A stretch of 64,000 bases of DNA from Schmidtea nova. Lineage: Eukaryota. Positions within the stretch are counted from its first letter, which is position 1, and the number at the start of each line of letters is the position of its first letter. The position numbers and the translations under genes were made by a program. Below, in pieces: positions 3 through 53,035 of this stretch. Below the pieces are notes generated by a model. It saw only the letters and a list, made by a program, of their open reading frames with translations, was not told where the DNA came from and searched no databases. The stretch is taken from NCBI GenBank assembly GCA_044892505.1, contig CM097882.1, positions 163,184,001-163,248,000 on the forward strand, given 5' to 3'.

Positions 3-1157
3 CAGAATATCTATGCCTAGAATACATTTCCTTTGACATATATCTGCTACTCGGAACACATGATCTATGGTCTGATTTTCAAAGTATACTGTAAGTTTTA
101 CGTTTCCTTTAATAGGTATAGTGTGTGAAGAAAGTGACAATAATTCATCATTTGTTGATGTGATATTTTGAAGTTGTTTTTCTGTTAGTAGATCTTCTTC
201 TATCAATGATGCAGCGGCACCGGTATCTACTAGCGCATTTAGTATTTGATTGTTTATCGTTATTTGGGTTCTTGGCCTCATGTCGTTCGCTTCTTCTCTT
301 TCTTCTAGTCCATAACATCCGTATACTTTCTTTGGTTTTCTTATCAGCGTGTGGGTGTTATAATCTTTTAGAGGTATATTAGTTTCGATCTCATTGCCTA
401 GATTTCTTAATTGATCCATGTGTATAATATATGGTCCTCCTTGCGTTGGTTCCGTGTGATCGAATTCTTCCGTATGATTATTTTCTTGATTGGTATTGTC
501 ATCTATTAGTCTTTCTTCTGTTGTCTTTCTTATTATTCTTTTGATATCTTTATCATGTTTTGCAGTTATTAAATATTTTGCAATAAATGGACATAAACAA
601 GCTAGCATTTTGTATGAATTGCCAAATACTTGTCTCAGCTGTCTTAATGATACTAGTGATGAACATATCATTTTTAGTAGTGCAATAGAATAATAGATGC
701 CGAGTATGGTTGAGAAGGTATTTCCTAGGATTGCAAAGTATCCCCATATACTATATAGAACTCGATAAACTACCTTCTTGAAGTGTTCTTTTGATAACAA
801 GATGTCGAAATTGTATTGTCCATCGTGGCTATTCTCGATAACTTTGCTTGCTATTATTGTTAGTACTTTCTCCTTTTCGTTCGGAAATAATAAATGTTTT
901 CTTGCACTTTCTATGTCTTCCTTTGTATAAAGTCCATTGTTATCAAAATCATTTACTTCTATGAATTCTAGTTTCTTATCTAGTTCTGTCATTTCTAGAT
1001 TTAGTGGTCTTATTGCTACCTTCTTATCTGACATCGTTATCCATGTTTCGTCATCTAATTTATATAGAGGGTCTAATAAGTTTGTACATTTATCTATTCT
1101 CTTAGGTATGTAGTTTTTATCTGTTAGTATCCTTGTTATGGGTTGTAAGTAGACTTT
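3..1157 (-). CDS. Polyprotein part 2, same frame after one TAG: end of glycoprotein, TM segment, aspartic protease
   Basis: Hand translation gives 385 stop-free codons: KVYLQPITRIL...GLYTKEDIE...VLYSIWGYFAILGNTFSTILGIYYSIALL (TM)...NALVDTGAAASLI...CILGIDIL. Not in the ORF track because it is open at the window edge. Confidence 0.88.
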
Positions 1158-4100
1158 CTATCCCTTATAAATAACTGGTAATTCGTTTGTACATTGTTTG
1201 TTCGTAGCTAATGATACACTGACTGGTTTACATTGAAATGTTTGGATTACTTCGCCGACAACTCTAGCAAATGCGCCTCTTTCTGAAAAGAGCATTGGGG
1301 CCATTAGATCCGGATTTGTAATTGCTAATGCCATTTTCGTTCTTAAAATTTCTCGGTTAAGCTTACAATCATTTATTATTGTTTCTTGATATACCCTATC
1401 TAATTGCATTAATTGATGGTGATAAAAATAGTCGATCTTATTATTGAAATATGATGAAAGTTTAATATCGTATTTGTTTACTTTTATTTTCGCATCTTTT
1501 ATTTCATCTCTTCTCAAATATAGACCTTTATAATTGGTTTGTATTATTGACTTTCCACATTTTATAATTTCCCCTTTACTAACAAATCTCAATGCTTCTC
1601 CTGAAGATTCTGTCATATATATTGTGGGTGTATCTTTTTCTTGGATTACAATTGTCTTTCGTTTTCTATCTCTTACTTTAGTTGATTCTGTATTTGTAAA
1701 CTGTTTGCCTTTAATTGCTGTAAATTTTAGCGACTTCAATATTGTTAGAGGACAATCGTATGGATCAACTTTATATATTACTATTGATTCACCAGTGTCA
1801 CAACTTACTTCTTTTGATGTACAGAAAGGGTGTGTCATCATTTTTTGTGTTATGCTGTCAAATGATGCTTTAAACTGTCTAAGTTCGACAATGTATTCTC
1901 GTCTTACAACGGCGTTTTTTATAATGTGTCCCCATATTCTATATTCCCCACCTTGACAATATCCTCCCTGTGAAGACCATCCAATTACATCTACTCGTTG
2001 TTTTACTCGTGCACCTACCTGTGCTTTTAGTTCGATTTCATGTATTTTTATCTTCTTTGATTGAAATGCATTTTCACACTCTTGTGGTGTTATTATAACT
2101 GTGTCTGGTGTAAATGACGGTCGGAGTATCGTCCTTGCTATATTATTACATACAAAGACTTCTTCAGAATATTTTATTACACATTCTTTTGCTTCTGTAT
2201 GTATAAAATCAGATTCTTGATAAACATAAAATATTTTAGGTTCTGTGGTACTTAAAGTGGTTGGATTAGCTTCTGGGCAATTTTCTACATCTAATAGTGA
2301 ATATTTTTGTCCCCATTTTGGATTCTGACAATCATAAGCGATCATACCTGTACTACCCTTTATTAAGTTAAGTAATATTGTTATCATCATTATTATAATA
2401 GGTATTGATAATCCATGATTACTTTTTCCTGATTTCATCATTGTTTTATTTATTATTTTCTTTAATCGTCTTTCAACTTCTTTTTCTTGGGTATCTATTT
2501 CTATGGTAGGTGTCTCTATCGGCACTGTTTTATCGTATAAGATTTGCCACCCACCTTTAGACTGTATCCATGGTATCACTTCGGGTTTAAATTTTATTAA
2601 TATTTGTTCGGCTACTCGATGTACTTGTTTCTCCGCATTTTTTATCAATACATATTCTGATCTATAAATGAGGTATGCCAATGCTGTTACTACTCTATCC
2701 CGATTGATTCCTGTTCTGAATAATATTTTCAAGACAACTTTTTCATTAACATCTTCAGTCACTAAGTTTTTTATATCTGTTGTAATTAGTTTAATTCGAT
2801 TCCCTATGTTATCTGCTAAAGATGATATGTTTGCGTTGGAATATAATCTTGGGTATACAGTTTTAATCAAATCTATAATTATATCTGTATCTTCACTATT
2901 TGTTGACATTTCGCTTGCAATCTCTCTCAATTTTTCCGCCATCCGTTTACTAGTAAACTTATTTGTTATTTCTGACTCTTGTGACTCATCTCCATCTTGT
3001 TTTATCGTTTCAAAATCCTCTGCTTCATATGTTACATCGTTTTTCTGACTCGCATCTGATATAGATATTCTTCTATCATTAGCAATCCATTCATCTAGCA
3101 TTGATTCTAATCCCACTTTAACTGATACGGTTATTATATTGTTATCAATTGAATTTATCCCATAGTCCATTAAAAAATCTTCACTTTGCATCTTTATTCC
3201 GTAAAAGTATAATACTATTTCATCATTGATTCCTATTTCGCTGTACCAATTTGCTCTGGCTATTTGTTTTATCTTTTTCACTTTTGTACAAGTATGTACC
3301 CCTTGTTTATGAATGATGATTTTAGGTGTATCTCCATTTTTTGTTTCTAATGTAATTTCCAAGGGTTCATGTAACTTCTCATTTTTTCGAACAAATTCAC
3401 TATAACATCTCAACATCTCTTTTATCTCAATTTCTAATTCAAACAACTTTGTTTCCTTTTGTCTTTGAGCCAATAGCGGTATCAAGTTTCTCAGATTCTC
3501 AAGATTTATCCCCTCTACATGAATTTTATTTAATATTCTCAATACTTCATTATCATCTATAGGGTACTTTTTTAAAGATTCGTCCAATTCTTGCTTTAAA
3601 ATATTATGTCTATCTATCTCTGCTAGTAATTCTTCATCTCTTTCTCTTTGTTCTCTTAATTCATCATTATCCATCTTAACTTCATTAGTAAAAGTTTTAA
3701 ACTCATTAATCAATACATTAATTTTATTCCTTTCAATTAGTCTCTCATATTTTGTCTTAAATTCTTGTAATTCATCCCTCAGCATCTCGATTTCATTATT
3801 GGGTTCTTTAACCTCCATACCATTTATTTGTTTCACCTCTGGCTCCTTTTTAAACTGCACTCTGTTTGGTGATTCAACTCGTATATTTCTACATGCTTTT
3901 GCCATATGACCATACTTTTGACAATTAAAACATTTTATTTCACCTCGAAAATTAATTTTGTCTCTTCCATCATTATTAAATGGGCTAGGTCTTCTATCTC
4001 GATTATACATTTGTTGATTTGGACTTGGTCGTCTACCTCTAAGATTATCTCTATTTGACCCAAAATTATATCTATTATCATCATATCTATTTCGATCAGA

Positions 4101-5150
4101 ATTGTTCCTTGTATTAAAGTTATCCCTATAGTTCCGATTATCATTAAAACGACTATTTTTATTATATCGATTATTATCAAAATAATTATCCCTATTATAG
4201 TTTAAACGTCTCTCATTATCTTTATTATATTCAAAGTAATTATTTTTATCATTTCTGGTAAATTCTACATAATTGTCATTTCGACTATTCGGTCTACCCC
4301 TTGGGCTATTTGACCTCTTATTATTTTCTGGTGATTGATTTCGACTTGCATTTGGACTCATCCTTTTTCTATTTTTAACAAAATTCAAATATAACTGCTT
4401 CATCTCTTCCCATGGAATATTATCATCTTTATCAGTTACCTCAGATTTCCCTATTTTACTCTCTAATTCTACTGCATCAATTGTTGCGTTAGATCTATCT
4501 CTTTGAATTGCTTCAATTCTTCGAGCTTTCTGAACTAGTTCGTTTAAATCTTCATATTCGACCATTATTAATGCCTTGTATAAATATTTTTGAATTCCAC
4601 TCCAAAATTGATCCTCTATTAATTTCGCAGTATGTTCTCCTACTCCAAAAGCTTTTCGAGCTAACTCGGTCAAATTATACACATATTCTCCAATTGTTTC
4701 TCTGCTACCTTGGTATCTATTTCTAAATTTTTGTACATTAATTTTCTGCAAATCTCGCTCAATTACAATTTCACCTCTTAAATTGTTGACTAAGTCTTCC
4801 CAATTTCTACCCTTACATTCTAAATTATTATATGCCTGCAATGCATAACCCTTTAAATATAATGGAATTCGTCTTTTTAACTCATCTTGTGTCCACCCAC
4901 AAGCCTCTGCGTATTGTGCAATTTCATCAAAAAAATCATCAAATTTCTCAGGTTCCCCTTTATACGGTTCAACTGGTAATGTCTTTATTAAAATATTACG
5001 ATTAACGTTATCAGCATCTCTATTTTGCCAAATATTACGAAGGTTATCATTATTTTCATTATTATTCGCCATTCTATATACTATTCGATTTCTTAGATTA
5101 TGCGCTATCTCTAGATTATTATCAATTTTAGAATTTTTATTATTACGCAA
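1158..5150 (-). CDS. Polyprotein part 1: Gag, zinc knuckle, coiled coil, ubiquitin-like, Bcl-2-like, TM/signal segment, chuvirus-like glycoprotein ectodomain
   Basis: 1330-aa ORF (first ATG at 5072). Ubl ~3111-3329; BH3-like LREIASEM 2907-2930, BH1-like FRTGINRDRVVTALAY 2673-2720, BH2-like WIQSKGGW 2547-2570; hydrophobic segment 2347-2412; glycoprotein starts MIAYDC (2329-2346) and contains GEVIQTFQCKPV and CTNELPV. Confidence 0.85.
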   Translation of the reverse strand: MRNNKNSKIDNNLEIAHNLRNRIVYRMANNNENNDNLRNIWQNRDADNVNRNILIKTLPVEPYKGEPEKFDDFFDEIAQYAEACGWTQDELKRRIPLYLKGYALQAYNNLECKGRNWEDLVNNLRGEIVIERDLQKINVQKFRNRYQGSRETIGEYVYNLTELARKAFGVGEHTAKLIEDQFWSGIQKYLYKALIMVEYEDLNELVQKARRIEAIQRDRSNATIDAVELESKIGKSEVTDKDDNIPWEEMKQLYLNFVKNRKRMSPNASRNQSPENNKRSNSPRGRPNSRNDNYVEFTRNDKNNYFEYNKDNERRLNYNRDNYFDNNRYNKNSRFNDNRNYRDNFNTRNNSDRNRYDDNRYNFGSNRDNLRGRRPSPNQQMYNRDRRPSPFNNDGRDKINFRGEIKCFNCQKYGHMAKACRNIRVESPNRVQFKKEPEVKQINGMEVKEPNNEIEMLRDELQEFKTKYERLIERNKINVLINEFKTFTNEVKMDNDELREQRERDEELLAEIDRHNILKQELDESLKKYPIDDNEVLRILNKIHVEGINLENLRNLIPLLAQRQKETKLFELEIEIKEMLRCYSEFVRKNEKLHEPLEITLETKNGDTPKIIIHKQGVHTCTKVKKIKQIARANWYSEIGINDEIVLYFYGIKMQSEDFLMDYGINSIDNNIITVSVKVGLESMLDEWIANDRRISISDASQKNDVTYEAEDFETIKQDGDESQESEITNKFTSKRMAEKLREIASEMSTNSEDTDIIIDLIKTVYPRLYSNANISSLADNIGNRIKLITTDIKNLVTEDVNEKVVLKILFRTGINRDRVVTALAYLIYRSEYVLIKNAEKQVHRVAEQILIKFKPEVIPWIQSKGGWQILYDKTVPIETPTIEIDTQEKEVERRLKKIINKTMMKSGKSNHGLSIPIIIMMITILLNLIKGSTGMIAYDCQNPKWGQKYSLLDVENCPEANPTTLSTTEPKIFYVYQESDFIHTEAKECVIKYSEEVFVCNNIARTILRPSFTPDTVIITPQECENAFQSKKIKIHEIELKAQVGARVKQRVDVIGWSSQGGYCQGGEYRIWGHIIKNAVVRREYIVELRQFKASFDSITQKMMTHPFCTSKEVSCDTGESIVIYKVDPYDCPLTILKSLKFTAIKGKQFTNTESTKVRDRKRKTIVIQEKDTPTIYMTESSGEALRFVSKGEIIKCGKSIIQTNYKGLYLRRDEIKDAKIKVNKYDIKLSSYFNNKIDYFYHHQLMQLDRVYQETIINDCKLNREILRTKMALAITNPDLMAPMLFSERGAFARVVGEVIQTFQCKPVSVSLATNKQCTNELPVIYKG

Positions 5151-5320: not shown

Positions 5321-5338
5321 TCCCGGTTCGCGGCACCA
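5321..5338 (-). promoter_or_regulatory. Primer-binding site, tRNA-Phe-like or His-like
   Basis: Minus strand reads ...CCTCAACA-TT-TGGTGCCGCGAACCGGGA: LTR-terminal CA, 2-nt spacer, then a TGG-initiated 18-mer. tRNA identity is uncertain. Confidence 0.75.
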
Positions 5339-5340
5339 AA

Positions 5341-5700
5341 TGTTGAGGTTCCAAGAATCTCAACTTGATGAACTTATATAAATAAGTCAAAGACTGGTTC
5401 TTTTCTAAACTTTATTTAAGTTATAACAATTTACAATTTTGATAAAAATTAAACAATTACCTCACAAAATATATGTATCAATTTCAAACTTATATTTTAT
5501 ATATGTATAGATGCGTGTGTGTGTGAATATTTGCAGCTTCCTGAGCTCGGATGTGTAAATAGGTATGCTCAAATTATGTTGTAATATCAATTTATTGAAT
5601 TTACAACTCTTCTTTAAAGCTTTTGATTTTTGGGTGATTTAACTGAAAAATCAGTCAGTTTATATACTAAATTTTAAGGCACTTAATCTGTCAATAATGA
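5341..5700 (-). repeat. 5' LTR of the Bcl-2/Env element; inner boundary at 5341, outer boundary not determined (end coordinate is a placeholder)
   Basis: TGTTG at 5341 (CAACA on minus) next to the PBS; AATAAA on the minus strand at 5411-5416. The second LTR is outside the window. Confidence 0.55.
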
Positions 5701-6530
5701 TTGTTATTTTGCCTCTTGAGTTGATTGAAATTGTTTTTGAAAATAGAGTTGTTTTCAAAACAGAATTGTTTTCAAAATTATTTTTTAACCTTGAGATATT
5801 ATTTCATTTTTCTGACCTTGTAGGTCAGAAATATAATTTATTTAAACAAACAGTAATTTATTTATTTTTAATTTATTTAAACAATCTGTATTATTTATTT
5901 ATTTATTTTATTATTATTATTATTTATTGAATTAAAATATTAAAATATAAATGAAAATATAATCCATTTTCCAAATAGTTAAAAAATTAATTTACATAAA
6001 ATATTTTCAACACAAAATATTTTTTCAAAATTATATAAAATTTTGTCCATCACCATAAAAATGTCAATAAATGTTCGCAATATCACAAATGATAAATTGT
6101 CAAATTATAAATTGTCATGATGATAAATTGTCATTACAAAAATTAATTTTCAACAATATTTTATTAACAGAAACAAAATAAAATTATCCCATAAAAATAA
6201 AAATTGCCAGATAGTCATCACATAAAATATTATCATATAAAATCACTAAAATCATAATGTCATTGAATTTGATATTTTCCATTGTCTATCTATTTTAAAA
6301 AAATACATCAACAAATAAAATCAATTATTCATATCATCAATTATCAAAACCAATAAAATAAAAGAAAATGTTATCACAATCAAATGTAGTTCATCAAGTC
6401 AAATTATTATCATTGTTGGCCTGGGTTCTGATTGTTGTTATCCACATACACATTTAGTCTGTACTTATTTGCCCCTATTGTATAATTTTCATCTATCTCA
6501 AAATTTTCGACTATCTTCCCTGTATCTAAC

Positions 6531-7057
6531 ATTAATTACAAAACACGTGTGCATTACAAACACACCAACAAACTAATTTTATAATCAAGCCATTTTTTAG
6601 GAAATTAAATTTTACTTATACTTTATTACAATGAAAACTCAATAAATTTATTTTATATACACGAAAAATGCAAAATTAATTACAAAACACGTGTGTATTA
6701 CAAACACACTAGCAAACTAATTTTCTAATAAAGCCATTTTGTAGTCATTTAAATTTTATACATATAATATTACAAGGAAAACTCAAAAAAGTTATTTTAT
6801 ATACATGAAAATGTAAAATTAATTACAAAACACGTGTGCATTACAAATACACCAACAAACTAATTTTCTAATCAAGCCATTTTATAGGAAATTAAATTTT
6901 ACTTATACTTTATTACAATGAAAAATACATAAAGTTATTTTATATACATGAAAATGTAAAATTAATTACAAAACACGTGTGCATTACAAACACACCAACA
7001 AACTAATTTTATAATCAAGCCATTTTATAGGAAATTAAATTTTACTTATACTTTTAA
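6531..7057. repeat. Tandem repeat, 143-144 bp unit, about 3.7 copies
   Basis: ATTAATTACAAAACACGTGTG recurs at 6531, 6675, 6818 and 6961. Confidence 0.93.
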
Positions 7058-7441
7058 AATCAATTTTTATTCACATGTTCGAAGCATTTTTAATAATCAT
7101 TGAGCTGTTGTTTTTGAACAAACTTTTGTAATTTTATAATTTTTGAATTCTATGAGTTTCGATTTTAATAAATCAATAGTTATTCACATCTTGGGTCCTG
7201 ATCTAAATGATTATATTGATCGATGAGCCTTTAATTTAACGATTTTCATAATTTCCATTTGGCTTGCAAGTTTTGGCGAGATACGAAGTTGTTGCGAGGC
7301 GAAGATGAGTAACGAGCTGGATAATATTGGATGAAGTATCGATATGTTTTATTGAGTTATAATTTTGCATTTCATTTTGTCCCAGATAATATAATTCAGA
7401 TACATTACAATATTATAGTTCGAAATCATTAATATAAACAT

Positions 7442-15779: not shown

Positions 15780-18700
15780 GTAAATTTTGATATTTACATT
15801 ATAATAAGTATTATTTGATTATCTTTTTATAATTTATTAATTTTTAGTTACCAAATAAATTTTTATGGGTAACTTAAATTTTTTTTTACAAAAAAAATCA
15901 ATAACCTTAAAATATAGAAAAGGAAGCAGATAGATATCTGTACGTTTATTGTTATTTTTAGAAGAACAACTTTGTCATAAGCTTATTATTAACAAAAAAT
16001 ATATATTACGTCATACATATGCTTATGTAATCATTTAATATTTAGATCACGTTAATATTTTATTCTTAACTGCGATTAGTTATTATAATGAACATTGTTG
16101 GAACATTAATTAATTATTCAACACAATTATTTTAAAAACAATATTTTAAACAATTTGATTTGTTTAAATATGATGTGTTAGAGAAAATAAAAACTTTTAA
16201 ATTAAAAAGCGTGCTTCTTTTATGAATCTTATAAATGGTGTCAGCAACTCCCAAGTTGACCATGTTTCGGTCAAAATTCCAGCAATTTTTCAGAACCAGA
16301 GTCTGTGGTTCAAACAAGTGGAGGCTAGTTTCAAGATATCAAGAATTACAGAAGAAACTACAAAATATTTTTATTTAATTTCAAATCTTCCAACAACAAT
16401 GCTATCAAAATACGAACATCTATTGGACTCAGAAACCGAGCTTCCGTACTCAACTCTGAAAGAAGCAATCCTAGCAGAATTTGAGCTATCAAGAAAAATA
16501 TCGATAACAGAATTGATGAGAGAAGAATGCCTTGGAGATCGATCTCCATCAGAAGCACTTCAGCACATTACGGGGCAAATACAAAGAATAGATACAGCCA
16601 TGGATCCATTCAACAGTCCTATATCTCGGGAATTGTTCATGCGACTATTACCAAGCTCTGTTCAGGACATCCTATTATCGATGCCAACGACGGACCTTCG
16701 AAAATTAGCAGTCACAGCAGACAGAATAATGTTATCAAAGCGGCAATCAGTAAAGACAGTTGAACACGAAAATTGCAATACTCAAGAGTTAGGAGATAAG
16801 ACGAGAACAATTATGGAACTACAGGAAGAAATCAATGTAATACGTCAACAATTGAGGAATAAAAGCACCAGTAAGTTATGTTTTTATCATAGTAAATTTG
16901 GGCATAGGGCGAGGAAATGTCAGCCGCCATGTGATTGGAATGCAAATCAGAACGACAACTATCGATCAGAAAAATACATCAGAGAGAAATATCAAAATCT
17001 TGAACCGTCAAACATATCCTCAATGAACAACAACAATTTCAACAACAACAACAAATTCAACAACAACAACCAATTCAACAACAACAACAAATTCAACAAC
17101 AACAACACTTTTAACAACAACAGAGAGAACCAGGGAAACGAGAGAAGGTTTCATTGAACCCGAACAGTGAAACCTACAAAATCATATCCTCTTTCTCGGG
17201 ACAAAGCAACTCACAAATATTCGAAATACCAGCAATCATAAATGGAGAACAAGTTAATTTTCTCATAGATACAGGCGCTGATCTCAGTATCCTTCCCGCA
17301 AACCGTTTCAAGCCTGATAGAAATGGAGAACATCGATCTTTAGTATCCGCCAACAATTCATCAATCACATACCACGGGCAGAAAACAATTGAATTTACTA
17401 TTGAAGGATTCAGAACTAAATTTATATGGTCTTTTGCCATAGCCGGCATATCTCGTCCAATCTTGGGTGCAGATTTCCTGGCCCGTCACAAAATCGATGT
17501 TAGTTGTAATTCCAGATCAATATGTTGCCCTAGCAGTAACGAAAGGGCAGAAGCGCGGAAAAGACTATGCGATAAGATTTGTGCTACAATCAACAATCAA
17601 ACTACATTAACCACGAAACTACAAATTATCACCAACGGTTCCCCTGTAGCCCAAAGACAAAGACCACTTTTTGGAGAAAAATTAGTTGCAACAAAGAAAG
17701 AATTTGACAGACTCTTAAATGAAGGTGTAATTCGGGCAAGCAAGAGTGACTGGGCATCTCCATTAGTAGTAATTAAGAAGCCGGATGGGTCATGGCGGCC
17801 TTGTGGAGACTACAGAATGTTAAATGAAATAACCCAGCCTGACAGATATCCACTTCCGAGGATTCAAGACTTACTGAACAAGATCAACAACCCTCATATA
17901 TTCACTAAGTTAGATCTGGAAAAGGCATATCATCAAATTCCGATTTGTGACGAAGACATTTCAAAGACAGCAGTCATAACACCGTTTGGATTGTTCGAAT
18001 ATACAAAGATGCCTTTTGGACTTAGAAACGCCTCTCAAACGTTTCAGAGACACATGGACAACGTACTCCGAGAACATCAAGAACATTCCTTATCCTATAT
18101 TGATGATGTTTTGATATTCTCCAAGACTGAAGCAGAGCATAAAGCACACGTGTCGAGTGTGATGGCCAGTCTTCAAGCAGCTGGTCTCATAGTCAACCAG
18201 AGCAAATGCGAATTCCAAACCGAAAAGGTAAATTTTTTGGGTTTCGAATTAACAAAACAGGGAATCAAACCATCGAAGGAATGCACCTTAGCAATTAGCA
18301 ATTTAAAGAAGCCAACCAATAGTCAAGATTTACGACGTTTTATTGGTGGCATCGGCTATTATCACTGGCTAATTCCAAGACTGTCAGATACACTGAGTCC
18401 ACTGCATGACTTGTTACAAAAATCGGCCGATAAAAAGGAAGATCTCTTATGGCAAGACTGCCATACACAGGCCTTCATGAATGCCAAAAATTCCGTACGC
18501 GAAATCAGCAACGTCTCATACCCTAACCCATCCAAGCCATTCCTATTATGCACTGACGCATCGTCTAAAGCAATTGGAGCAAGTCTAAGTCAAATCAACG
18601 AAGAAAATAAATCATTTCCTATTGCCTTCTTTTCCAGGAAATTAAATTTAACCGAACAGAAGTATTCTACTTTCGACAGGGAGTTATTGGCAATATTCTT

Positions 18701-21700
18701 ATCTATAAAACATTTTAAGCATTTCTTAGACGGTTCTCATTTTACAGTCATGACGGACCACAAACCTTTACTACGAGCTAGACATATGAAAGATCCATCG
18801 CCAAGACAATGGCGAATAATCGAATACCTTGATCAATTTGATTTCACCATCGAATTCATAAAAGGGGAAGACAATGTAGTTGCCGATCTCTTGTCCAGAC
18901 AATGCAGTAATCAAGACCTACAAGTATCAACTGTGGAGATTAATTTCGTTGAATTCACTAAAGAAAGTTTAAAAGAAGAACAAAGGAAAGATCAGACCTT
19001 ATCTACACTGAAAAATGCAAGTCTCCAGTTATGTAGTACTATAGATGATATCCTCATTGACAACTCTACGGGGGAGACCAGAATAGTACTGCCAAAAATA
19101 TTCCGATATCAAGAATTTCTAAGAATTCATAACATATCTCATCCAGCATCCAAACCAACGATAGAATTGATCAAAGCGAGATATGTGTGGCCACAGATGA
19201 AAAGTGACATCAGAGAGTGGTGTAGACAATGTCAAAGATGTCAAGGTGCAAAGATAACAAGACACACACATGCTCCGTTAGGTACCATAGAAACCAAAGG
19301 AAGGTTTATCACAGTTCATCTAGATATAGTGGGTCCTCTGCCGAGCGTCAACAACAAAAGATATATCATGACTATGATAGACCGAGGAACGTCATGGGTT
19401 GAAGCAATTCCTATATATGATATCACAACAGATATGATAGTAAGAACGTTTGAAAGAGAGTAGATCAGTCGTTTTGGTGTTCCAGAAATTGTTATAACAG
19501 ATCAAGGAGCACAGTTTGAATCAGAAAAATTCTCCAATTTCTGTAAGGTAATGGGAATCGAAAGGAAGCGAACAACAGCATATCACCCTCAATCCAATGG
19601 GAAGATAGAAAGATGGCACAGAGCCATGAAAAACTCGATAAGAGCAGCATCAGAAAACTCATCCAAGACGTGGGCCCATGATCTCCCCAAGATTCTACTC
19701 AGTTTAAGAAACTGCACGAAGTCTAATGCGTCTCCATCGGCAGCGCAACTCACATTTGGTTGTCGAGCCAGATTACCCGGAGATTTTGTTATTAGTGAAC
19801 CAATATTAACCAATATCGAAGACAATTTAGCATCGATTCAAGAGGAAATCGACTCACAACTAAGTAACAAAAAAACAAGCCAACCAAAACAACATAGTTT
19901 TGTAAGCAAACTATTTGTTAATTGCAAAAAAGTGTGGCTTCGAGCTGAATTTAGGAAGTCGTTAGAAGATCCGTACACTGGACCATACGACGTTATAGAA
20001 AGATCCGATGACAATAAAACGTTAAAAATCAAAATTGGAGACCAAATAAAGAATGTTAGCATCGACCGTCTTAAGCCATGGATTGGAGCTGATGAATTTG
20101 CTCCGCAATCTTAAGGGGGAGTTGTGTTGGAACATTAATTAATTATTCAACACAATTATTTTAAAAACAATATTTTAAACAATTTGATTTGTTTAAATAT
20201 GATGTGTTAGAGAAAATAAAAACTTTTAAATTAAAAAGCGTGCTTCTTTTATGAATCTTATAAACATTAATGTCTATTCGTAATAAATAGTAACGTAAAT
20301 GACAATAAATAAAAATAATTATCTTTTTGTTTCACCTTTTATCTCTTTTTATTTATATAAATAATTTCCATAATGGTATGACTATAGATCAAAATTTTTT
20401 GGGGGTTTCGTTGGGTTGTTAAGTACACGGTATTTTGGCACAGCCTTTATCTAGTTTTCGATGACTAAGCGGCAGTTCCAGTAGTTTCATTGATATGTGA
20501 GTGCGGAAGCGAGTGCAAATGTAAGTGATTAAACTTACATTTTGCTTTTGAAAATAATGTTGTGTCGCTTTTTAACCTTTAACCGGACAGAAGAGTCTTT
20601 TGGATTCTTTTTTAACCATACGTAAACCAAAATTAAAATACTAATTCAAATTTAATTTTTTGCACATTTTTTTAACGAATCATGAATTTTCTTAAAACAA
20701 ATTTAAAAGGGGGATTCCCCGATAATGCGAAAATAGTAAAGTAGCTTTTAATTTCTCATTTTATGTGAGTAATTTGTCGAGTACAGTGGTTTTGTTCTTT
20801 CTAAATCTAAGTAGTTATATTGAAAAAGCATACTTGAATTACGGCAAAGTTTTTTATCAAAATATAAAAGTAAGTAATAAATATAACGATTAAATATTAA
20901 TTTAGTACTAAAATAATAATTATAAAATAGCAAAATGGGCTCAAGACAAAATATGAATAGAGGTTTGAATGAGGAACAAATTCGTCTTGCAATTGAAGTA
21001 GCATCAGATTTATAAAATTAAGATACTATTGCAGAAGAAAATTCTGATGTGGATTCGGTATCAGATAGAGAATCCAACTATACGGAAACAGATTCCGAGG
21101 AAGATGACACGTTATATTACGAAGATGAATCGATTAATGGAGAACAAAATGAAAGTTAAATCTTTATGGGAAAGGATAGGACTTAATGGGAATCGAGACC
21201 AACACTAAATCACAGACGGCCACCTCCATTCAAAAACCCACGCAAAAAAGTGAAGCTCCCTCCTGGTTATAAAATCGACAGACCTGTTGATTGTTTTTCG
21301 TTATTTTTCAACGACGAAGTAATTGAAATAATTGTGAAACATACAAATATTGAAGCTACAAGAAAAATTGGTGGTAAATGGAAAAATACTACCCCAATAG
21401 AAATCGGTGCATTCATTGAACTCTTACTTACCGCAGGTGGTAATAAGCAAGGAAATGTGAATTATGAAGATTTTTGTGATTCTCTTTTTGGAAGTCCTAT
21501 ATTTTGCGCTACTATTGGTATACGGCGTTTCAAGTTAATTTTGAGATTTCAACGATTTGATGACAAGGATACTCGGTCAGTGCATAGATCCAATGATAAA
21601 TGGGCTCCAATTAGGGATGTTTGGGAAATCATAAATAAAACTTCCTTAAAATAATATATACCAGGCCAAAACTTAACAATTGATGAACAGTTGGTTCCTT

Positions 21701-24700: not shown

Positions 24701-27543
24701 TTTAGAAAATTTAGTCAAAATAAAGTATCCAGTGTAAATTCTTCTCATTTATCAATGACTAATTTTCCAATTTCTAAAGTGATAAAATCCTCAAATGTGA
24801 TTTTTAATATTTCTGAATGTGAAGTCAATTCATCGAACTTTAGCAACACTGATTCAAATAAAGTTATTAATTTGAAACGAAGTCAATCTGACAGTACAAG
24901 GCAAAACATTGAAAAAACAGTAAAATCTTCATATGATGATAGAAATAGATTTTTCTCTGAAAACCAAAATTCTTTATTTCCCCCAGATATAGAATTATTT
25001 GATTTTGAAAAGAATACAAATAATAATAATAATATTTCGAATTCATTTACCAACTCATTAGATTCCATTTTAATGAATATGGACAAAGTTCCGTCAGTGC
25101 CAAACATGAAACCCACTTTATCACAATATCCAGAATATCAAATTAACAATAAAAACAACGATGTACGTGGTTATATTATTCTAGTAATATTGGTGATGGT
25201 GATTTAAGTTGATTCATCTTACAACATTGATGTTTACGATTCAGGTTATTCCATTTATCATATATTTTTAATTTAACATTTTATTTTATAATTTAATATG
25301 TTCTAATTTATTTTAGTTTAACGTTTAGGTTATTCAAATAGAAAGCGTCTTACGATGCTAAATATAATTCTATAACATGGTTGTTTTGGATTTACTGGCT
25401 TTATCAGACATATTCCAGACGATTACTATAGACAGGGCGTACATTAAGTGTTCATAAACTTTGATCGATTTGGTTCCAATTCTCAGAGGTCGGGACTTCG
25501 GGAATTTTTCCCGAGGCCCTGCACTTTCATATTCTAACAATTATTAGTAGCTAAGCAAAAACTTTTTTTACAAGTCGGATGTTAACGCAGGTCTTTTTCT
25601 GCATTTTAATATCAATGAATTGTAATATCTTGACTCTAATACGCACTTGTTTCACATTTTAGTCAGAAAAAATAAGGATGCATATTATACTCGTATACAA
25701 AAAAAGTATTGAATTTAATTCTTTTTCTTAATTCTATTTAATTCTCAGCTATAAAGATAGGACATTTTTTCACAATATAAAGTGGACAAACAAAATATAT
25801 TAAAAAACAATGTGTTGTAATAGCATTCTCAATTTTTAAAGAACTGTAGCCATTGTAACTATAGACACAGAAAGTAATGAAAAGACTTTAAAAAACAGAT
25901 GGCTTTGGATCAAAGCACGGCGTCTACAAATGTGTAGGGCCTTTTCAATAAAATAACAAACCAAATAATAAATGCAAATAAATAATTATGTTCATGTATC
26001 ATTTTTGGGAAGGGGCCCCGCATATAATAATTTCTCAAGCCCCCGCAAAACCCAGAGCCGGTCCTGCCGATACTCAAACTGCCATCAGCAAATTCTCAAA
26101 CCAAAATGAGCAAATAATTGAGAATTTTTTAACTACAAGAATGGAACCCCGTACAGGATCAACTGCATTTGAATTAGTTCCATTAAGGTCATCTTGGATT
26201 ATTTGATATTAAAATTGATAAAAGCAAATATTTTGATCGGCAATACCATCACTAAGCTTCTTTTAACCAATTATCATATCAATCCATTAATTTAAATTAG
26301 CTAAAAAGAATTAACACGCTAAAGGTTTTCTATGAAGTCTAATAAATTCTCTCGAATCTCTTATCCAAACAAAGTCAATAAGATATCATTAGACGCCAAT
26401 TCATAAATAAAACTTAATTTTTCCTAATTATTCGAGATTGTTTATGATCGTCAATCCCATAAGTAATGAATTTCAAATCAGTAAATCAACAAATATATTA
26501 TTTCAATAATGAAAATTCACGAAGTACTTTTCTTTTTTTTCTTTCTCCTGAATTCAGGAGAAAGAAAATATCTAGAAAGAAGTAGGAAGTTAATTGGAAA
26601 GAATTTTGTATTGGAGTGATCAGGATCTTTTTAAGATCGAAATATTTTATTTAAATAAACATTGCGGAGAAGGCTTAACGTTGTTAACTTATTATTACAT
26701 AATAATTATTATAGTAATAAATATTAATAATGATAATAATAATAATAATAATAATAATAATTATTATTATTATTATGATAATAATAATANNNNNNNNNNN
26801 NNNNNNNNNNNNNNNNNNNNNNNNNNNNNNNNNNNNNNNNNNNNNNNNNNNNNNNNNNNNNNNNNNNNNNNNNNNNNNNNNNNNNNNNNNNNNNNNNNNN
26901 NNNNNNNNNNNNNNNNNNNNNNNNNNNNNNNNNNNNNNNNNNNNNNNNNNNNNNNNNNNNNNNNNNNNNNNNNNNNNNNNNNNNNNNNNNNNNNNNNNNN
27001 NNNNNNNNNNNNNNNNNNNNNNNNNNNNNNNNNNNNNNNNNNNNNNNNNNNNNNNNNNNNNNNNNNNNNNNNNNNNNNNNNNNNNNNNNNNNNNNNNNNN
27101 NNNNNNNNNNNNNNNNNNNTCAACTTTGATCTTTTTTTATTATTAATATCAATAATTCCCATAATGGATGACTATAGATCAAAATATCTCTAAATAAGTA
27201 CACAATATTTCGGCACAGCCTTTATCAAGTGTGTATTTAATAATAATAATAAACTATTAAATAAAAATGGCAATTTATTCAAATATATAAAAAAACACCA
27301 TTTTTTAAAATATATTAATGCAATATATTTCAACAGCTCAGCTGTCATCATCAAACTCTAAATAAATTTAAAATGTTTTTATTATATTTATAATTTTTTT
27401 AATTAAAAGAAAATTCTTTTTAGAAAAATCAACATCCTACCATTATCGATTCATTCAAAAAAAGTAAATTTTAATTTATTAAATGAAACTTAAAGATAAT
27501 TATTTTTATGGAACATTCGTCCATACTCATTGTAGTGCCTCCG

Positions 27544-27609
<66 letters not shown>

Positions 27610-30600
27610 AAAAAACGTGGCAATGATTTAATAATAGAAAAACGCCAACTAAATAAATTCAACATAAACGCGATATATTTCGATTGTATAACAATATTCG
27701 TCAGGCAGCAATCAGGACAATCAATAATTAAATAGAAAATATGCAATATCTAAACAAATTAACTAATAATAATCATCTCTATACTATATATTTATACTAT
27801 CAAAATTTAATTTAATTTTTTTATTAGATAAAATTTAAAAAATTATGTAAAACAACATTTTTGATAATTCAACATACATTTTTTTAAAAAATAAAATAAA
27901 ATTTTACAATTCAGCATTCAATTTACAAATTTAAAAAAATGAAAATGTCGTTGGACATTAATTAGTGAACATACTGCTAACTTTGCAAGACGTGGAAACA
28001 ATTCTAAATTGATCCTTGTCGACATGTTTGAGAATCTTATGCTTAAATTCTCTGAAGCCCTCAGAATAAGGCAATACCAACACATATTTCGGCTCCGTGC
28101 GATTAGATCGATTTTTGTCACTTTCCGAAATTAACAAAGTACTTTTATCAGAATCAATAGGTGCATTGCATTCAGACGCACGCATACCAAGATCATTAGC
28201 ATTCAACCTTAACTTATTCACGGTCACTTTCGTCATTTTCTCAAGAAAAGATTTAGAGTAACCATTTTTAAGTAACTGATAGTGGTCTGTATACAACGCC
28301 TGAGACTTTTTGTGACTTTAAATATAAGAGGAATATGCTGAGAGGATTAGTGTTTCGTGCTTGGTCACTATCTTCTACGTTTGTGAATTCAGTAAACAGT
28401 ATTGATGCCTTGGTTGAATTGTTACTGACATGAAACATCCCGGAAGTCGAGACTGCTTGGCAAACAAATTCCCTCTGTCTCACCAACCTGAATCCAATTC
28501 GACAGACTTCAGTCACTCTATATTCACATTTACCTGAAAGATCCATAGTAATGACAAGTTCAGAAGACAAAACGTTATCTGTAGGTCATAGATTGAAATT
28601 GAGAGATTCGGCAAATGGAGAATCAGAAGCTGTCATGCTTTCATTAACATAACTGTCGTTATTCTCATCCATATTTAATTGAAGAATTTCGAATGAAAAA
28701 GGAACACAATCAGATTAAATTTTAAATCAGCTTTAATCCTTTATTAATTTAAAAAATCCAATTACAAATACATTACAAATTCCAATTCAAAAACCCTTTT
28801 TTAAACCCACAATTACCAATTAAAATTTAAAATTCTGATAAACCCCGTATTATTTAAACAACCTTTTTTAAACAAGTAAATTAGCCATTAATTAATAGTT
28901 TTTTTTATAATTACCAAATATAATTTCCTAGAATCAAAATTTCATAAAAAAAATTAATTTTGAATATCAACAAATATATTTACAGACTTCGTTTTGGAAT
29001 CTTCATTTTATTACTTTATCGACTATTTCAAGAGCAACCATTTAAAAATAATGTTATTTTAATAATTAAAAGGCAATATTGTTTAAAACATCTATGTTGA
29101 AAGTAATAGATCTGGCTTGTTCATCATTGATATGTGCAAGTTACCCATATATCGAAATTACAGTTAAGTTTCTATCATATTTTAATAATTTTATATTCTC
29201 AATTGTTACGTAAATAATAAGTAAAATTAACAATCAAAATTAAAAATCAAAATTTTTATATAATAGTTAAAAGATGCGATCTCTCGCAGTTCTTGCTAAT
29301 TTTTCAGATTACTGAATTTATTTTAAAGCATTTTTTTAATAAATTATAAAAATATGTTTTACAGTTAAAAGAAATTCAAAGTCCAAATCTGTTAATGACA
29401 ATGACCGATTATTTACCAATGATTTTGAAACTGTAAGAAAATGCTTTTATTCTCCAACATTAAGTGTTAGCCAAATAAATGAATCTAAGGAATCAAGAAT
29501 TAAAATAAAAAGAGTTGCAATCAGAGCAAAAAGTGAACCACGTCAGCTAAAAATATCACGAATACAAGTACATNNNNNNNNNNNNNNNNNNNNNNNNNNN
29601 NNNNNNNNNNNNNNNNNNNNNNNNNNNNNNNNNNNNNNNNNNNNNNNNNNNNNNNNNNNNNNNNNNNNNNNNNNNNNNNNNNNNNNNNNNNNNNNNNNNN
29701 NNNNNNNNNNNNNNNNNNNNNNNNNNNNNNNNNNNNNNNNNNNNNNNNNNNNNNNNNNNNNNNNNNNNNNNNNNNNNNNNNNNNNNNNNCCTTTGATCTT
29801 TTTTTATTATTATTATCAATAATTCTCATAATGACTATAGATCAAAATTTTTTTTTATATAAACAATAACACAATTTTAATTTTAACACAATTAATTTTA
29901 GAAGTTCTAAAATTAGCAATAAATTCAGATACTGTCATAATTAAAGAAAAACCATTCAAACAAATTCATGGATTAGCCATGGGTAATAACCTTTCTCCCA
30001 TCTTAGCCATCTTCTACATGAACTTTATAGAATCTAAGATCATATCTTTTTTTGGGGACAAAATACTTTTCTGGAAACGATACATCGACGACATCTTCAT
30101 AGTCTCCACAATCCCTCTCAATCAAATCCTATCACACGCAAATTCTACTAACACCAACATACAATTTACTTTTGAAACACCGAACACAGAAGGTAAAATA
30201 CCGTTTTTAGATACCATGGTAAGTTTCACAAAAGGCCAAGATACACTAAATGCAAACACCGAGCTATATTCTAAAGGTTTACATAGCGGTCATATCCTCC
30301 CATGGAAAAGCCACGTTCCACTTCAACGCAAAATCGCATTACTAATAGGAGAAAGAAAAAGAGCCATAAGAAACTGTTCAGACGCAAACAAAATACAAGA
30401 AACATTAGAAAACTTCAAAATACGATTCCTCCAAAATGGATACCCTGAAGACTTTGTAAAGAAACACTTCCTTAACGAACCATACCACAATAAACGCAAC
30501 AATAGAAAACGCCAGAAACACAATAACAATAACAAACACACAACATATCTAAGATTACCTTTCCTAAATGACACTACAGCCAACAAAATCACCAACATTT

Positions 30601-32890
30601 TTAATCAAACAGATTTGCCTATCCACATCCGTCCAACGTTCATAACCTCCGCACCGTTAAAATCACAACTCCGAAAGCCACCAATTTCCAACATCTCCAA
30701 ACATAAATGTCTTTGTCGTTCCACAACCCGATGCTTTTGCTTTTCCAAAAATATAGTATATAAACTTTCTTGTCAAAAATGTGACGCTACTTACATAGGA
30801 GAAACACATAGAACTTTTCGCACCCGACTTAATGAACATACTAAAATCAAAACCAGTAATTATTACGAACACTGGGAAAAAGTACATAAAACAACTCCAT
30901 CTATAGAAGAAACAAAATGCCAGATCCTACAAGAGGGATTCAAAAATTCATTACAAAGATTAGCTTCCGAGACTTTTTTCATAAAAAAATACAAACCGTC
31001 CATCAACATTCAATTCGCACAAAAAAATTAAAATAAAATAAATTTTTTCATCCAATAAAATCATTATAAAATATTAAAAAAATAATTAAGGCTACTATTT
31101 AGGATTAAGTAAATATAACGATAGAAATACACACTTGATAAAGGCTGTGCCGAAATATTGTGTTATTGTTTATAAAAAAAAAATTTTGATCTATAGTCAT
31201 NNNNNNNNNNNNNNNNNNNNNNNNNNNNNNNNNNNNNNNNNNNNNNNNNNNNNNNNNNNNNNNNNNNNNNNNNNNNNNNNNNNNNNNNNNNNNNNNNNNN
31301 NNNNNNNNNNNNNNNNNNNNNNNNNNNNNNNNNNNNNNNNNNNNNNNNNNNNNNNNNNNNNNNNNNNNNNNNNNNNNNNNNNNNNNNNNNNNNNNNNNNN
31401 NNNNNNNNNNNNNNNNNNNNNNNNNNNNNNNNNNNNNNNNNNNNNNNNNNNNNNNNNNNNNNNNNNNNNNNNNNNNNNNNNNNNNNNNNNNNNNNNNNNN
31501 NNNNNNNNNNNNNNNNNNNNNNNNNNNNNNNNNNNNNNNNNNNNNNNNNNNNNNNNNNNNNNNNNNNNNNNNNNNNNNNNNNNNNNAAAAAACACAAATT
31601 GCGCACACAGACTACAAAGTCTGGTGCAACAGACGAACAACCAGTGTCAAAACATGGGTTTATGAATACAAACAAAATATCAATTGAGTCAATGACAATC
31701 TCCGGATAAGCCATTGCCCAAAATAACACGTCAATTTTAGTTTAAAATGAAGGTTTTGACCACTGTTTTTTTGTTCATTATGAATTTCTTCCGAAAGACA
31801 AAACGACCAAGAGTATTACATCGGTGTTATGAAATTTTTGCGTGAAGCTGTGCATTTGAAAAGAAAAAATGGAAATTTTAGTGATTTTTTCTTGTCCAGC
31901 AGACTCAAAAAGCTACTTTGAGGAACTTATTTTAATAGCATTGATGTAATAAAAGACAAATTGAAGTCTCTCATGGCTATGCCGAAGATTGATTATGAAA
32001 AAAACATTCGAGCACTGGATTAAACGTTGTCACAAATATATTGCTTAGGGTGAGGATTAATTTAAAGGGTAACTTCGAAGGATTAATTTGCCGCCTGTCA
32101 ACTGTTTTTTTAATTATTTCACTATGATGATTTATCGTTGAACCGGTAAGTCATACCCTTTTGAGCTAGGCTATTCAGATCTCGTATTTTGGTAAAATTG
32201 TTAATGCTATCTCGTTTACAAACATTGAGACTAATAACAATTATTAATTTTTAAGATTCGAAACTCTGGAAAGTGGGAAATTCCTAAATCTGACATTACT
32301 AAGAGCTATAGAATAGGCTCCGGCTCATATGGTACTGTATATAAAGGCTATTGGCATGGAAATGTTGCAATTAAAGAATTAAATGTCTTTAATCCATCTT
32401 CAAGTCAGCTTCGAGCATTTATAAATGAAGTGTCTGTTTTAAGAAAAACTAGACACGTTAATATTGTTTTATTCATGGGGTATATTATCAAACCGAAATT
32501 AGCAATTGTGACTCAGTGGTGTGAAGGTTCAAGTCTTCATAAACATATCCATGTTTTGGAAAAGAGTTTTAATTTCCATGATATTATTGATATCTGTAGA
32601 CAAATATCTCAAGGAATGGAGTAAGATTTTAGTATTGATTTTAAAAAAATATCAGTTTTTTTGATCATTTAAATTCTGAATTTTTTCAATAAATGATGGA
32701 GAACTTTTAGAATCATTATTAATTTTGACCCTAAAATTATTTTATGAAAAATATTATTAAATTACAATTTTATTTTCTTAATCTTTTAATGCTTACTTTT
32801 TCTAAATTACACTTTAAATATATATATATATATATATATATAAACAAGCATTCATATACTAAAACCATATATGTTAGAACAATAGTCAAG

Positions 32891-33172: not shown

Positions 33173-36100
33173 TATATGAATATATATGAATATACCATAT
33201 ATTTTNNNNNNNNNNNNNNNNNNNNNNNNNNNNNNNNNNNNNNNNNNNNNNNNNNNNNNNNNNNNNNNNNNNNNNNNNNNNNNNNNNNNNNNNNNNNNNN
33301 NNNNNNNNNNNNNNNNNNNNNNNNNNNNNNNNNNNNNNNNNNNNNNNNNNNNNNNTTTTCAAAAAATTGTAATTCAACTTGCACAACTACGATTTAAAAA
33401 TAAACTTGTAATATGTCACTGTCTAATCTGCATGAGCATGTCATTCAAAACTTTGAATGAAATGACCTTTGTAATTCATTATTTTTCTTATTCACAGGAG
33501 AATGTGAGAACCTCAAATAGATTTTATTTCATATTTTTTGGAACCATCAAGAAATTGTTGTACAGTAGTGAACTTCGTTATAAAACAAAGTTGTCTGTTT
33601 ATTTCGATGATTTTAACAAAAGTTCTTGTCGTGATTTACAACGATTTCACATAAAATACAGAATGGTTCATTATTCGGCGACTTTTTAAATTTTTTTAGA
33701 AACATTCGCATGATTTCATAAATTTTTGATGCATTACTTTAAACAACTTCGCACATGCTATTTAAACTTAAAACTTAGACCTGAAGTTTACTTAATTCAA
33801 AGATAAAATATAAAAAGTATAAAATAAAATTACCTATCTAAGGATACAGCGTACTATTGACTTGTAATACATATTTATATATTATTGTTATATTGTTTAT
33901 ACATTCTGTTTGGTAAAATGCTAAAGCAATATAATAAATTTAGCAAATTGAATAAACGAATAAAATTAAATATGATCAATTATACTGAACTGACTAAGGG
34001 GCCTCGAAGTAAATCCATATACCTAAAGTTTATATACAATAAGAACTTGTTGGTCAACGACAGAAATGTTAAAAAACAAAAGTTTATTAAGTTTACTTTG
34101 AAAAATGTTTTAAATTATAAACAAATAAATAATAATTTTTTCTTTAAAATTAGGCGCCTTGTGTAAATTACTTAGTAAAATGTACTTAAGATTGATTTTG
34201 ATTACTTACAATTAAACCTGCTATAATTTGTCATCTCTCATTTTTATCAGCAAGATTTCAGTCCACTAATTTCATTATATAAGTACTGATCTGTTAGCGA
34301 AATATAATTTATTTATTAAAATTTATTTCTAATTCGCTTTTTCTCAAGTAAAAATATTGTAAAATACAGTTGGTACTCACTTTAATGTGATTTAAGAATA
34401 ATTACAATCTGTGGATAATTTGGACTGATTTTCGATATACTAAGTTTTCACTTTTTCCGTAATTCTGTATTTTTATTTTAGAAATTATGATTTAATAATA
34501 AAAAGGATAAGTAATAACTAGAACGTATAACTAACGCATAATAAATGTATAAAATATTCTCATTCGAAAATGAATTTAAGACGAGCTCTAGATCGTTTTT
34601 ATATAATGTAAATGTTAGCGTTAGGACTAGGTTTTATTAATTTTTTAATCTACAAGTATTTTACCTTGTTCTTAATTGATTAATATATTAATTTAATACA
34701 ATACTGTTTCGTTTATTTAAAATAAAAATTCTGAATATTTTATTTTTACTTAAGATATTTACATGCTAAATCAATTATTCACCGAGATTTAAAATCAAGC
34801 AACATATTTTTACACGAAAAAATAATCAAAATTGGTGATTTTGGTCTATCTACAGTTAAGTGCTCATGGTCAAAATATAGATCTCAACACCCAACTGGGT
34901 CGATTTTATGGATGGTAGAAATTTTACTTTTATATATAATAAATTAATATTGTAATAATTTTTTTAAATAATTTTATTATTTAAAAATATATATGTTTAA
35001 CTATTTAACTATAAAGCCCGTTAAATGATGGTCGAAATTTTTTAAAATGACTTCTAAAATTATATAACCAATACCACAAGCTGTCACTTATTACGAGCAA
35101 ATGAGACATATTTTAAGTGCAATTGGCACTAATTTAGTAAATTTTTGTCTTATTTTGATGTTTAAATGTATTTTATTTCTTAAATTAAATATAATTATGC
35201 ATTTATATAAATATTTGAGGATTTTTCTTATTATTTTGTTAAAGGGTAATATTTTAATAATGATTATTTTAGCGTAAATATTATCTAAATGATAATTTAT
35301 GTCTTTCAATGATATATTATTCGACACGTAAAACATTCAAAATATCCGTAAAAATCTTTTTTTTTAAATTTTAAGTGTCCGTAATTAGCTGATTTTTACT
35401 TAATTTATGTCCATATGTGTGTATTTTTATTAAAGGTTCTTGTATGTTTTTTGACTTTTTATTCTTCTGGTTTACTTTACTAATTGTACGTATTTTTGAC
35501 TGCTCACTTAATTTTTGTCCTTATTTGAAGTAAGTATATACTTTAAAGTAAGTATATACTTGTTCTTTTGCAGTGTTACATTAAGTAGCATCACCTATAA
35601 TATAAAAAAATCAAAAAGCTTACCGTATAGAAAAATGCACACCTACCGTTACACTATTCATTGCTGGTTTACTCAGCAAAGCATTTGTCGTAGAATAAGA
35701 GATTAAAAAATTTAAGCACACACAAAAACAAAACATAGAAAAAACAGATGCAAACATTCAGACGCCTTAAACGTTTCAATTGGTAAAAGCACCATATTGT
35801 TGGGGTTAGTATAAAAATCACAAAAGTAACAAGAAATAATAGTAAAAAGCAAAGAAATATCAAAATAAATAAAAGATTTATTAAAATTTATCAAGAATTT
35901 AAAATTAATATTCATCGGGGGAAATGGGTATGGTTGAATGCCAAATCAAGACGAACCCAAAAATAATAATAGAAATTTAGTAAGGGGTCTCCAGAGAAAG
36001 TTATATAGTAAAAACAAACTAATTGAAATTAATTAATCGTTCAATGGGAAGCCTGAGGCAATGGGAAACCCAAACGCAGTAGAGACCGTGAGATCAAAGG

Positions 36101-52798: not shown

Positions 52799-53035
52799 GG
52801 TGGGTTGCTGATCGTCAATATGACCTTGACGTTGCTATGGCTCTCATCAACAACTCAACACATAAAACATTAGATTTAACCAATTTGTTGCCCGTCACTA
52901 TGTAACGCTGGTAATGCAACAAATGGGTGGGTATTCGCAATCAGTGAGCGTCGTCAATACGAAACTATGATTGACCGAATATCTCCTGGGTTCAAGGGCT
53001 ACCGATAGAAAGTTTAATGCCCATTTCCGTCCCTT
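52799..53035. other. Module C copy
   Basis: Stem reads TTTGTTGC/GCAACAAA here versus CTTGTTAC/GTAACAAG at 9338-9377. Confidence 0.55.

Follow-up and report, generated by a model that had tools for sequence, protein, structure and literature searches.

Retroelements with the order GAG-ENV-POL and a gB-type Env were described from Nematoda, Bryozoa and Platyhelminthes by Chary and Hayashi (PMC13524379), and all of them were assigned to Ty3/gypsy using GyDB profiles. In the excerpts of that paper considered here, nine flatworm entries are listed and an ancient origin or association is favoured over recent viral capture. The same excerpts cite Sacco et al. 2022 for nematode non-canonical ERVs, in which an RNA-virus glycoprotein was captured by a metavirus. 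According to the parts of PMC7642597 used, Anakin is a mosquito BEL/Pao element with a chuvirus glycoprotein. Background on extra ORFs is given in sections of PMC12440569 and PMC5408684. The chu-like, xinmovirus and qin-like glycoproteins and herpesvirus gB possess a class III fold and conserved cysteines, and are encoded by stand-alone genes with an N-terminal signal, not within a Gag-Pol polyprotein. A viral Bcl-2 is a strategy familiar from large DNA viruses, as in the Bcl-2-fold proteins of poxviruses, adenovirus (E1B-19K) and herpesviruses.

We analysed a stretch of 64,000 nucleotides from Schmidtea nova (contig CM097882.1), referred to as the window. Very probably it holds the 5′ half of an LTR retrotransposon of Ty3/gypsy type that carries an envelope and belongs to the known GAG-ENV-POL HSV/gB-type kind, following the operational definition of “errantivirus” given in PMC13524379. 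The GC content of 30% and the closest catalogued relative make a triclad flatworm the probable host. The predicted features were the following.

5341..5700, minus strand: probable U5 end (3′ part) of the 5′ LTR; reads CA and, after a 2-nt spacer, the primer-binding site; the upper limit of 5700 is a placeholder
5321..5338, minus strand: primer-binding site, 18 nt, beginning TGG two bases after CA; tRNA-Phe/His-like
3..5072, minus strand: single polyprotein frame Gag-cargo-Env-PR; 1,690 codons with one TAG, running off the window edge
4488..5000, minus strand: Gag capsid domain, Ty3/gypsy type; best PDB sequence match the dArc2 capsid, E 0.0012
3891..3932, minus strand: single CCHC zinc knuckle (nucleocapsid); PF00098 E 1e-4, above the cut-off; the one CCHC in the frame
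3384..3605, minus strand: four-helix domain, no family match; model pLDDT about 75-87; paired with the ubiquitin-like domain
3111..3368, minus strand: ubiquitin-like (beta-grasp) domain, a fold match; no C-terminal di-glycine
2529..2960, minus strand: Bcl-2-like domain; degenerate BH1 at 2705-2685, clear BH2 at 2570-2547
2346..2417, minus strand: putative internal signal segment before Env; hydropathy 2.12, predicted cleavage site
753..2345, minus strand: predicted class III fusogen ectodomain (HSV/gB-type, chu-like Env); PF24664; TAG at 1158-1160
645..752, minus strand: membrane-proximal region and transmembrane anchor; hydropathy peak 1.81 at aa 1456-1474 (707-651)
282..644, minus strand: cytosolic tail and linker to the protease; the PF24664 match extends to aa 1538
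3..281, minus strand: aspartic protease, cut by the window edge; DTGA motif at 233-216; PF00077 E 6.8e-6, above the cut-off

Read from 5072 to 3 on the minus strand, the frame passes through Gag, a helical and ubiquitin-like module, the Bcl-2-like domain, the signal segment, the class III ectodomain, the transmembrane segment and the protease. Its sole stop was the TAG at 1158-1160, in mid-ectodomain. Base shuffles of the same stretch (n=200) contained 149.6 stops on average and 118 at minimum, versus the 1 observed. A near-stopless frame of 1,690 codons with these domain matches is far beyond chance.

A chu-like fusogen located before pol in a gypsy backbone is of a kind already published, as the excerpts of PMC13524379 make plain, and is not new. 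Taken by itself, this finding is minor and adds one defective family to the published catalogue. Like Smed_errantivirus_3 and the other flatworm GAG-ENV-POL elements in those excerpts, the element has a Ty3/gypsy-type Gag, a gB-type Env between gag and pol, no furin site and flanking hydrophobic segments. It forms a distinct family, about 32% divergent from Smed_errantivirus_3 over Env domains I-II (166/245 identical, about 68%, by a hand count), and unlike that element the window copy has a nonsense codon. The nematode ERVs of Sacco et al. 2022, as reported in PMC13524379, share with it an Env before Pol in a metavirus and differ in their nematode hosts. In the portions of PMC7642597 considered, Anakin likewise combines an LTR element with this glycoprotein family, though with a BEL/Pao backbone and in insect hosts.

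The Gag was of the Ty3/gypsy type at modest score, judged from the dArc2 match and the single CCHC. A Pfam scan of the capsid against PNMA gave E 0.02-0.06. Gag was 25-32% identical to that of the window in five of 16 relatives tested, and the window protease was 42% identical to the protease of relative P0007. Behind the 5′ LTR lay a tRNA primer-binding site (5338-5321). Its reverse complement ends in CGGCACCA, and so do two tRNA ends listed in supplementary file 1 of PMC13524379, His_GUG and Phe_GAA_His_GUG; no exact 9-nt match was present there. A tRNA scan detected no tRNA genes in the window. No second copy of the 5′ LTR region was found within the 64-kb window using blastn, and the 3′ LTR would lie, as do the RT and integrase of this copy, beyond base 1, so that the Ty3 class leans on the Pol of relatives.

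From a series of motifs, the preliminary description had proposed a glycoprotein homologous to chuvirus (Jingchuvirales-like) G and expected a class III fusogen. The whole series was present on the minus strand in one frame, from 2342 to 909: IAYDC (2342-2328), YSLLDVENC (2303-2277), GEVIQTFQCKPV (1256-1221), CTNELPV (1193-1173), YLQPITRIL (1151-1125) and GLYTKEDIE (935-909). The span proposed for it, 650-2412, corresponds to the signal segment through the transmembrane segment, and both hydrophobic segments were recovered by hydropathy, at 2417-2346 and with a peak at 707-651. The suggested HMM search upheld the homology: the Pfam family PF24664 (Monjiviricetes_fusion) matched the two halves separately (E 3.1e-44 and 7.4e-38) and the whole, with TAG read as X, at E 4.8e-88.

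The ectodomain model (pLDDT 91.1, pTM 0.74; 115 aligned sequences) contained long strands and a 48-residue central helix. Its top matches among the viral models of BFVD (Foldseek) were chu-like, xinmovirus and qin-like glycoproteins (E 1e-37 to 1e-29, TM up to 0.76, 17-20% identity). Among the matches listed for solved structures, every one was a herpesvirus gB (E 2e-14 to 2e-11, TM 0.39-0.50). The sequence profile matched only gB among PDB sequences, and weakly (best E 0.049); the class III assignment was settled by the fold search. On this model Env is a class III fusogen, which agrees with the earlier expectation, and its ectodomain is of the class III (gB-type) form of GAG-ENV-POL errantiviruses, flanked on both sides by segments that are hydrophobic by hydropathy.

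All 14 ectodomain cysteines were conserved in 13/13 or 14/14 of the clade members covering them (see the tree below), and each was kept in at least 113 of 121 aligned homologues, most in 100%. Judged by eye, window cysteines line up over domains I-II with those of Smed_errantivirus_3, an entry labelled C1a. The viral glycoproteins share the fold and conserved cysteines with the window Env at about 20% identity (10-12% for gB). Two observations weigh against the overall reading: the window ectodomain had no N-glycosylation sequons, versus 1-4 in 14 relatives, and in the alignment it departs from its family at a probable fusion-loop position. The first ~40 aa of the cytosolic tail were conserved in five of 16 relatives. 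A comparison of Env with phage genomes gave no match. A solo chuvirus endogenous element was considered and ruled out, as the glycoprotein is in frame with Gag and protease.

All eight matches to Env in a search among long proteins were themselves long proteins with the same Env (37-41% identity). The representative library yielded 1,218 matches at E 0.001 or better, from which the best 150 were taken. Of the 18 top relatives scanned, two (P0009 and P0020) were single predicted proteins with the series Gag-Env-PR-RT-RNase H-integrase, and three (P0002, P0006 and P0019) covered Env through integrase. The gag-env-pol order is thus represented by Gag-Env-protease in the window and extends through integrase in relatives. 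Two scans of bacterial and archaeal genome contigs detected no relatives of the window Env part or of P0006.

For the tree, 126 of the 152 fetched proteins aligned with the window Env; 13 rows with less than 75% coverage were dropped and three partial rows were kept. In the resulting FastTree phylogeny of 114 rows, which is unrooted (midpoint-rooted), the window Env clustered with all 14 polyproteins of at least 1,100 aa and 5 shorter rows in one clade with SH-like support of 0.999. The clade stood apart from 94 unlabelled rows, mostly glycoproteins of 600-760 aa, which could belong to viruses (G) or be Env proteins of Pao or insect gypsy elements. The phylogeny proposed in the preliminary description placed Env with retroelement polyproteins and names neither donor nor direction, the tree being unrooted and the 94 rows unlabelled. 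A recent independent capture from chuviruses (independent capture had also been put forward) gains no support from the unrooted tree or from the identity of about 20% to viral G, and the excerpts of PMC13524379 argue for an ancient association.

The sequence data support a Ty3/gypsy-type and not a BEL/Pao backbone, as had been anticipated from Gag and protease. The alternative would be a BEL/Pao retrotransposon of the Anakin kind with a chuvirus glycoprotein. In its favour, the same Env family is reported from mosquito Pao elements (PMC7642597, in part), and the RT of the window copy does lie beyond the window. However, one CCHC and a dArc-like capsid argue against it, and no BEL/Pao-type Pfam family was listed for the window protein or for the 18 top relatives scanned. 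In addition, the best PDB match of the P0009 Pol was Ty3 Gag-Pol (E 1.5e-127), and the RT cores of six relatives were 41-44% identical to another gypsy RT present in the window. We consider a BEL/Pao element extremely unlikely. Even less weight, close to none, can be given to the chance insertion of a chuvirus-derived endogenous fragment into a gypsy copy that lacked env. Arthropod genomes commonly contain inserted chuvirus glycoproteins, according to the parts of PMC7642597 used, but here the fusion is in frame on both sides and Env is far nearer to retroelement Envs (37-42% identity) than to viral G (about 20%). The same arrangement also recurs in many divergent relatives, a conserved architecture that already contradicts such an insertion.

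Between Gag and Env the frame carries two kinds of cargo. Residues 490-654 were modelled with a pLDDT of about 80 as four helices followed by a ubiquitin fold. The latter resembled SUMO1/ubiquitin (Foldseek E 1e-4; VIA Z 11.7, rmsd 1.6 over 74 residues) and was an Atlas lead at 0.83; it had no Pfam match in the window copy. For the four-helix domain no family match was found in Pfam or in the PDB sequence search, and two PDB sequence matches to the helical and ubiquitin-like part (E 0.6 and 1.2) were rejected. Using leave-one-out profiles among 153 proteins, the module was detected in five of 14 relatives, namely P0003, P0007, P0017 and P0018 (E 2e-30 to 2e-6) and, weakly, P0006 (0.003).

The second cargo is the Bcl-2-like domain (residues about 705-848). 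PF00452 matched it at E 8e-6 with 26.8 bits, under the gathering cut-off of 31.4, and Bcl-xL matched at E 0.002 from the single sequence and at 7e-6 with a 5-row profile. Its Atlas score was 0.92 with 214 shared features, at a recognition of 1864, which is below the 2300 reliability mark. In BH1, the window NRDR aligned to the NWGR of Bcl-xL, a motif kept in 0/5 element copies. The W..GGW of BH2 was present, with GGW invariant in 5/5 and the preceding aromatic W in four and Y in one. The region was modelled as all-helical with pLDDT mostly under 50, folded as part of the longer cargo. No Bcl-2 structures appeared in the cargo fold-search lists, which were filled by the ubiquitin-like domain, the Bcl-2-like region being of low confidence. 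Leave-one-out profiles detected the domain in four of 14 relatives besides the window (P0004, P0010, P0017 and P0018; E 1e-23 to 3e-5). No host donor was found in word-based homologue searches of the cargo (0/4,700 and 0/949), which are weak negatives.

This cargo probably acts on the host cell. Tentatively, and at somewhat less than an even chance, it may be a Bcl-2-fold adaptor damping death or immune signalling. A fuller scenario is more doubtful than that and on balance unlikely: an envelope-carrying gypsy lineage would have acquired and kept host-type Bcl-2-fold and helical and ubiquitin-like genes in one Gag-Env-Pol polyprotein, the Env signal holding on membranes the Bcl-2-fold part, which would there suppress death or innate signalling in infected stem cells. 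The recurrence of Bcl-2-like and ubiquitin-like cargo suggests manipulation of host cell death or signalling, which is relevant in a stem-cell-rich planarian. The viral Bcl-2-fold proteins of poxviruses, adenovirus (E1B-19K) and herpesviruses are alike in placing a Bcl-2-like domain on a virus-like element, and the Atlas neighbour clusters include such members. Unlike them, the window domain sits inside a retroelement polyprotein, has a degenerate BH1 and is predicted from sequence. If correct, a retrotransposon would here carry a Bcl-2 of the viral type, a strategy found for no LTR element in the literature searched. Neither Bcl-2-like nor ubiquitin-like cargo in LTR elements is reported in that literature, which omits most subscription journals and Repbase. 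The text and supplement parts of PMC13524379 considered contain no mention of a single polyprotein or of Bcl-2 or ubiquitin-like cargo. In the literature searched, then, what has no previous report is the cargo, Bcl-2-like and ubiquitin-like, together with the layout as one polyprotein.

The segment that follows the Bcl-2-like domain had been proposed to serve as both a tail anchor and an internal signal, and it might have come from a host bcl-2 gene that was captured together with its tail anchor, the anchor then taking on the role of Env signal. Its spacing would suit this: it lies ~45 residues after BH2 in the window, and in the five carriers BH2 precedes AYDC by 49-79 residues. However, an apolar stretch preceded AYDC in 15/15 proteins examined; by hydropathy, on which the topology rests, 12 were above our own threshold of 1.6 and three were visible but below it. 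Five of these proteins have a Bcl-2-like domain. The other ten have none detected, two of them (P0002 and P0005) with only ~150 upstream residues to inspect, and they include P0016, P0019 and P0020, which branch deeper in the midpoint-rooted tree. Since the stretch occurs in all 15 proteins with or without Bcl-2, the segment would be Env's by origin. The most fitting reading is an internal signal that belongs to Env; the proposed signal role is retained and a tail-anchor origin is improbable. Until cleavage by the protease, the signal segment could still hold Gag and the cargo, which lie upstream of it, at the membrane. The TAG also admits other explanations. As a programmed read-through codon it would lower anchored Env and Pol relative to Gag in an active copy; no other stop interrupts the 1,690 codons, and an element with one frame must set its stoichiometry somehow. 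Against this, it lies in mid-ectodomain, and 17 related predicted proteins span the position uninterrupted, though interrupted relatives would be under-sampled as fragments. Because the position is open in those proteins, a recent lesion or a sequence error is likelier, and read-through is very unlikely. Marginally less probable again is co-option of the copy by the host for Gag-cargo and a secreted truncated Env blocking entry of related elements. The stop does remove the anchor and Pol while leaving the upstream frame whole, and a decoy role was proposed for solo glycoproteins in mosquitoes (PMC7642597, in part), but the 385 codons still open downstream of the TAG fit a recent lesion or sequence error better than an old co-option. 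Judged from its sequence, then, the window element is a defective copy of its family owing to one nonsense codon in Env, and it lacks the uninterrupted ORF of an intact, catalogue-grade copy (TAG 1158-1160).

For an intact member of the Ty3/gypsy family described here, standard membrane-protein biogenesis suggests the following route. Gag and cargo would be synthesised in the cytosol, the internal signal segment would open ER translocation, and signal peptidase, cutting near AYDC, would free the N-terminus of Env. The ectodomain, held by disulphide bonds, would trimerise in the lumen, and the transmembrane segment would stop transfer and return protease and Pol to the cytosol, where the element protease may release Gag, cargo and Pol. 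With an internal signal and a transmembrane segment in this topology, the Gag and Pol precursors would be tethered beside Env, which would favour budding of enveloped particles able to fuse with neighbouring stem or germ cells. If Gag, Env and Pol form one membrane-threaded polyprotein, their processing should differ from that in retroviruses with a spliced env. One argument against this scheme is that Gag, Env and Pol read from one frame should be made in equal amounts, unless the ratio is altered by splicing or decay. In the window copy, translation would end inside the ectodomain, so that neither the anchor nor Pol would be made.

The Env ectodomain of the main element (753-2345, minus strand) contained 0 N-glycosylation sequons over 540 aa. 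The Envs of 14 relatives have 1-4 sequons each; among 91 homologues that are stand-alone proteins the number is 1-7, with a median of 4. The window Env also departs from the family at what is probably a fusion-loop position:

about 2130-2150 (-): Env residues 66-72, sequence CNNIAR

Elsewhere, among the proteins listed, these residues are CG followed mostly by H, S, W or R (13 clade relatives and five stand-alone homologues). Smed_errantivirus_3, the closest catalogued relative and a planarian GAG-ENV-POL element (PMC13524379), shows the same departure.

The TAG that breaks the Env ectodomain (1158-1160) may be a single-base sequence error. Such an error is conceivable because runs of N mark the source assembly as a gapped draft:

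26790-27119, 29574-29789, 31201-31586, 33206-33355 and 39250-39404: five N runs, 1,237 bases in total

Among the related polyproteins carrying the same Env, P0002, P0003, P0004, P0005, P0007, P0009, P0011 and P0016 had two to four protease-like domains each, some of them lying C-terminal to the integrase. More hydrophobic segments followed the integrase in frame in P0002, P0006, P0009 and P0019, which suggests that a second membrane protein ends these polyproteins. P0006 is labelled as a Flavobacteriaceae MAG protein; its content is an animal-type retroelement polyprotein, and it is probably a contaminant of that MAG bin.

A second Ty3/gypsy element and several other repeats were identified in the window:

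6524-7097: tandem array in which a 143-144-nt unit occurs four times (identity to the first copy, 73-93%)
16096-20264 (+): env-less Ty3/gypsy element with direct repeats, gag and PR-RT-RH-IN
21187-21654 (+): transposase fragment (DDE_Tnp_1_7, E 3e-16)
29841-31031 (+): RT fragment (RVT_1, E 1e-5)
38470-40785, 53010-60120 and 56667-57768: long inverted repeats, 190-400 nt at 87-97%

The direct repeats of the env-less element (16096-16235 and 20125-20264) are 140 nt long and 100% identical. Its gag is DUF7041, and its integrase is interrupted by a TAG at 19461-19463. We take the transposase fragment to be piggyBac-like, and the inverted repeats are probably DNA-transposon or MITE ends. The RT fragment, with a C-terminus that appeared GIY-YIG-like by eye, probably belongs to a Penelope-like element.
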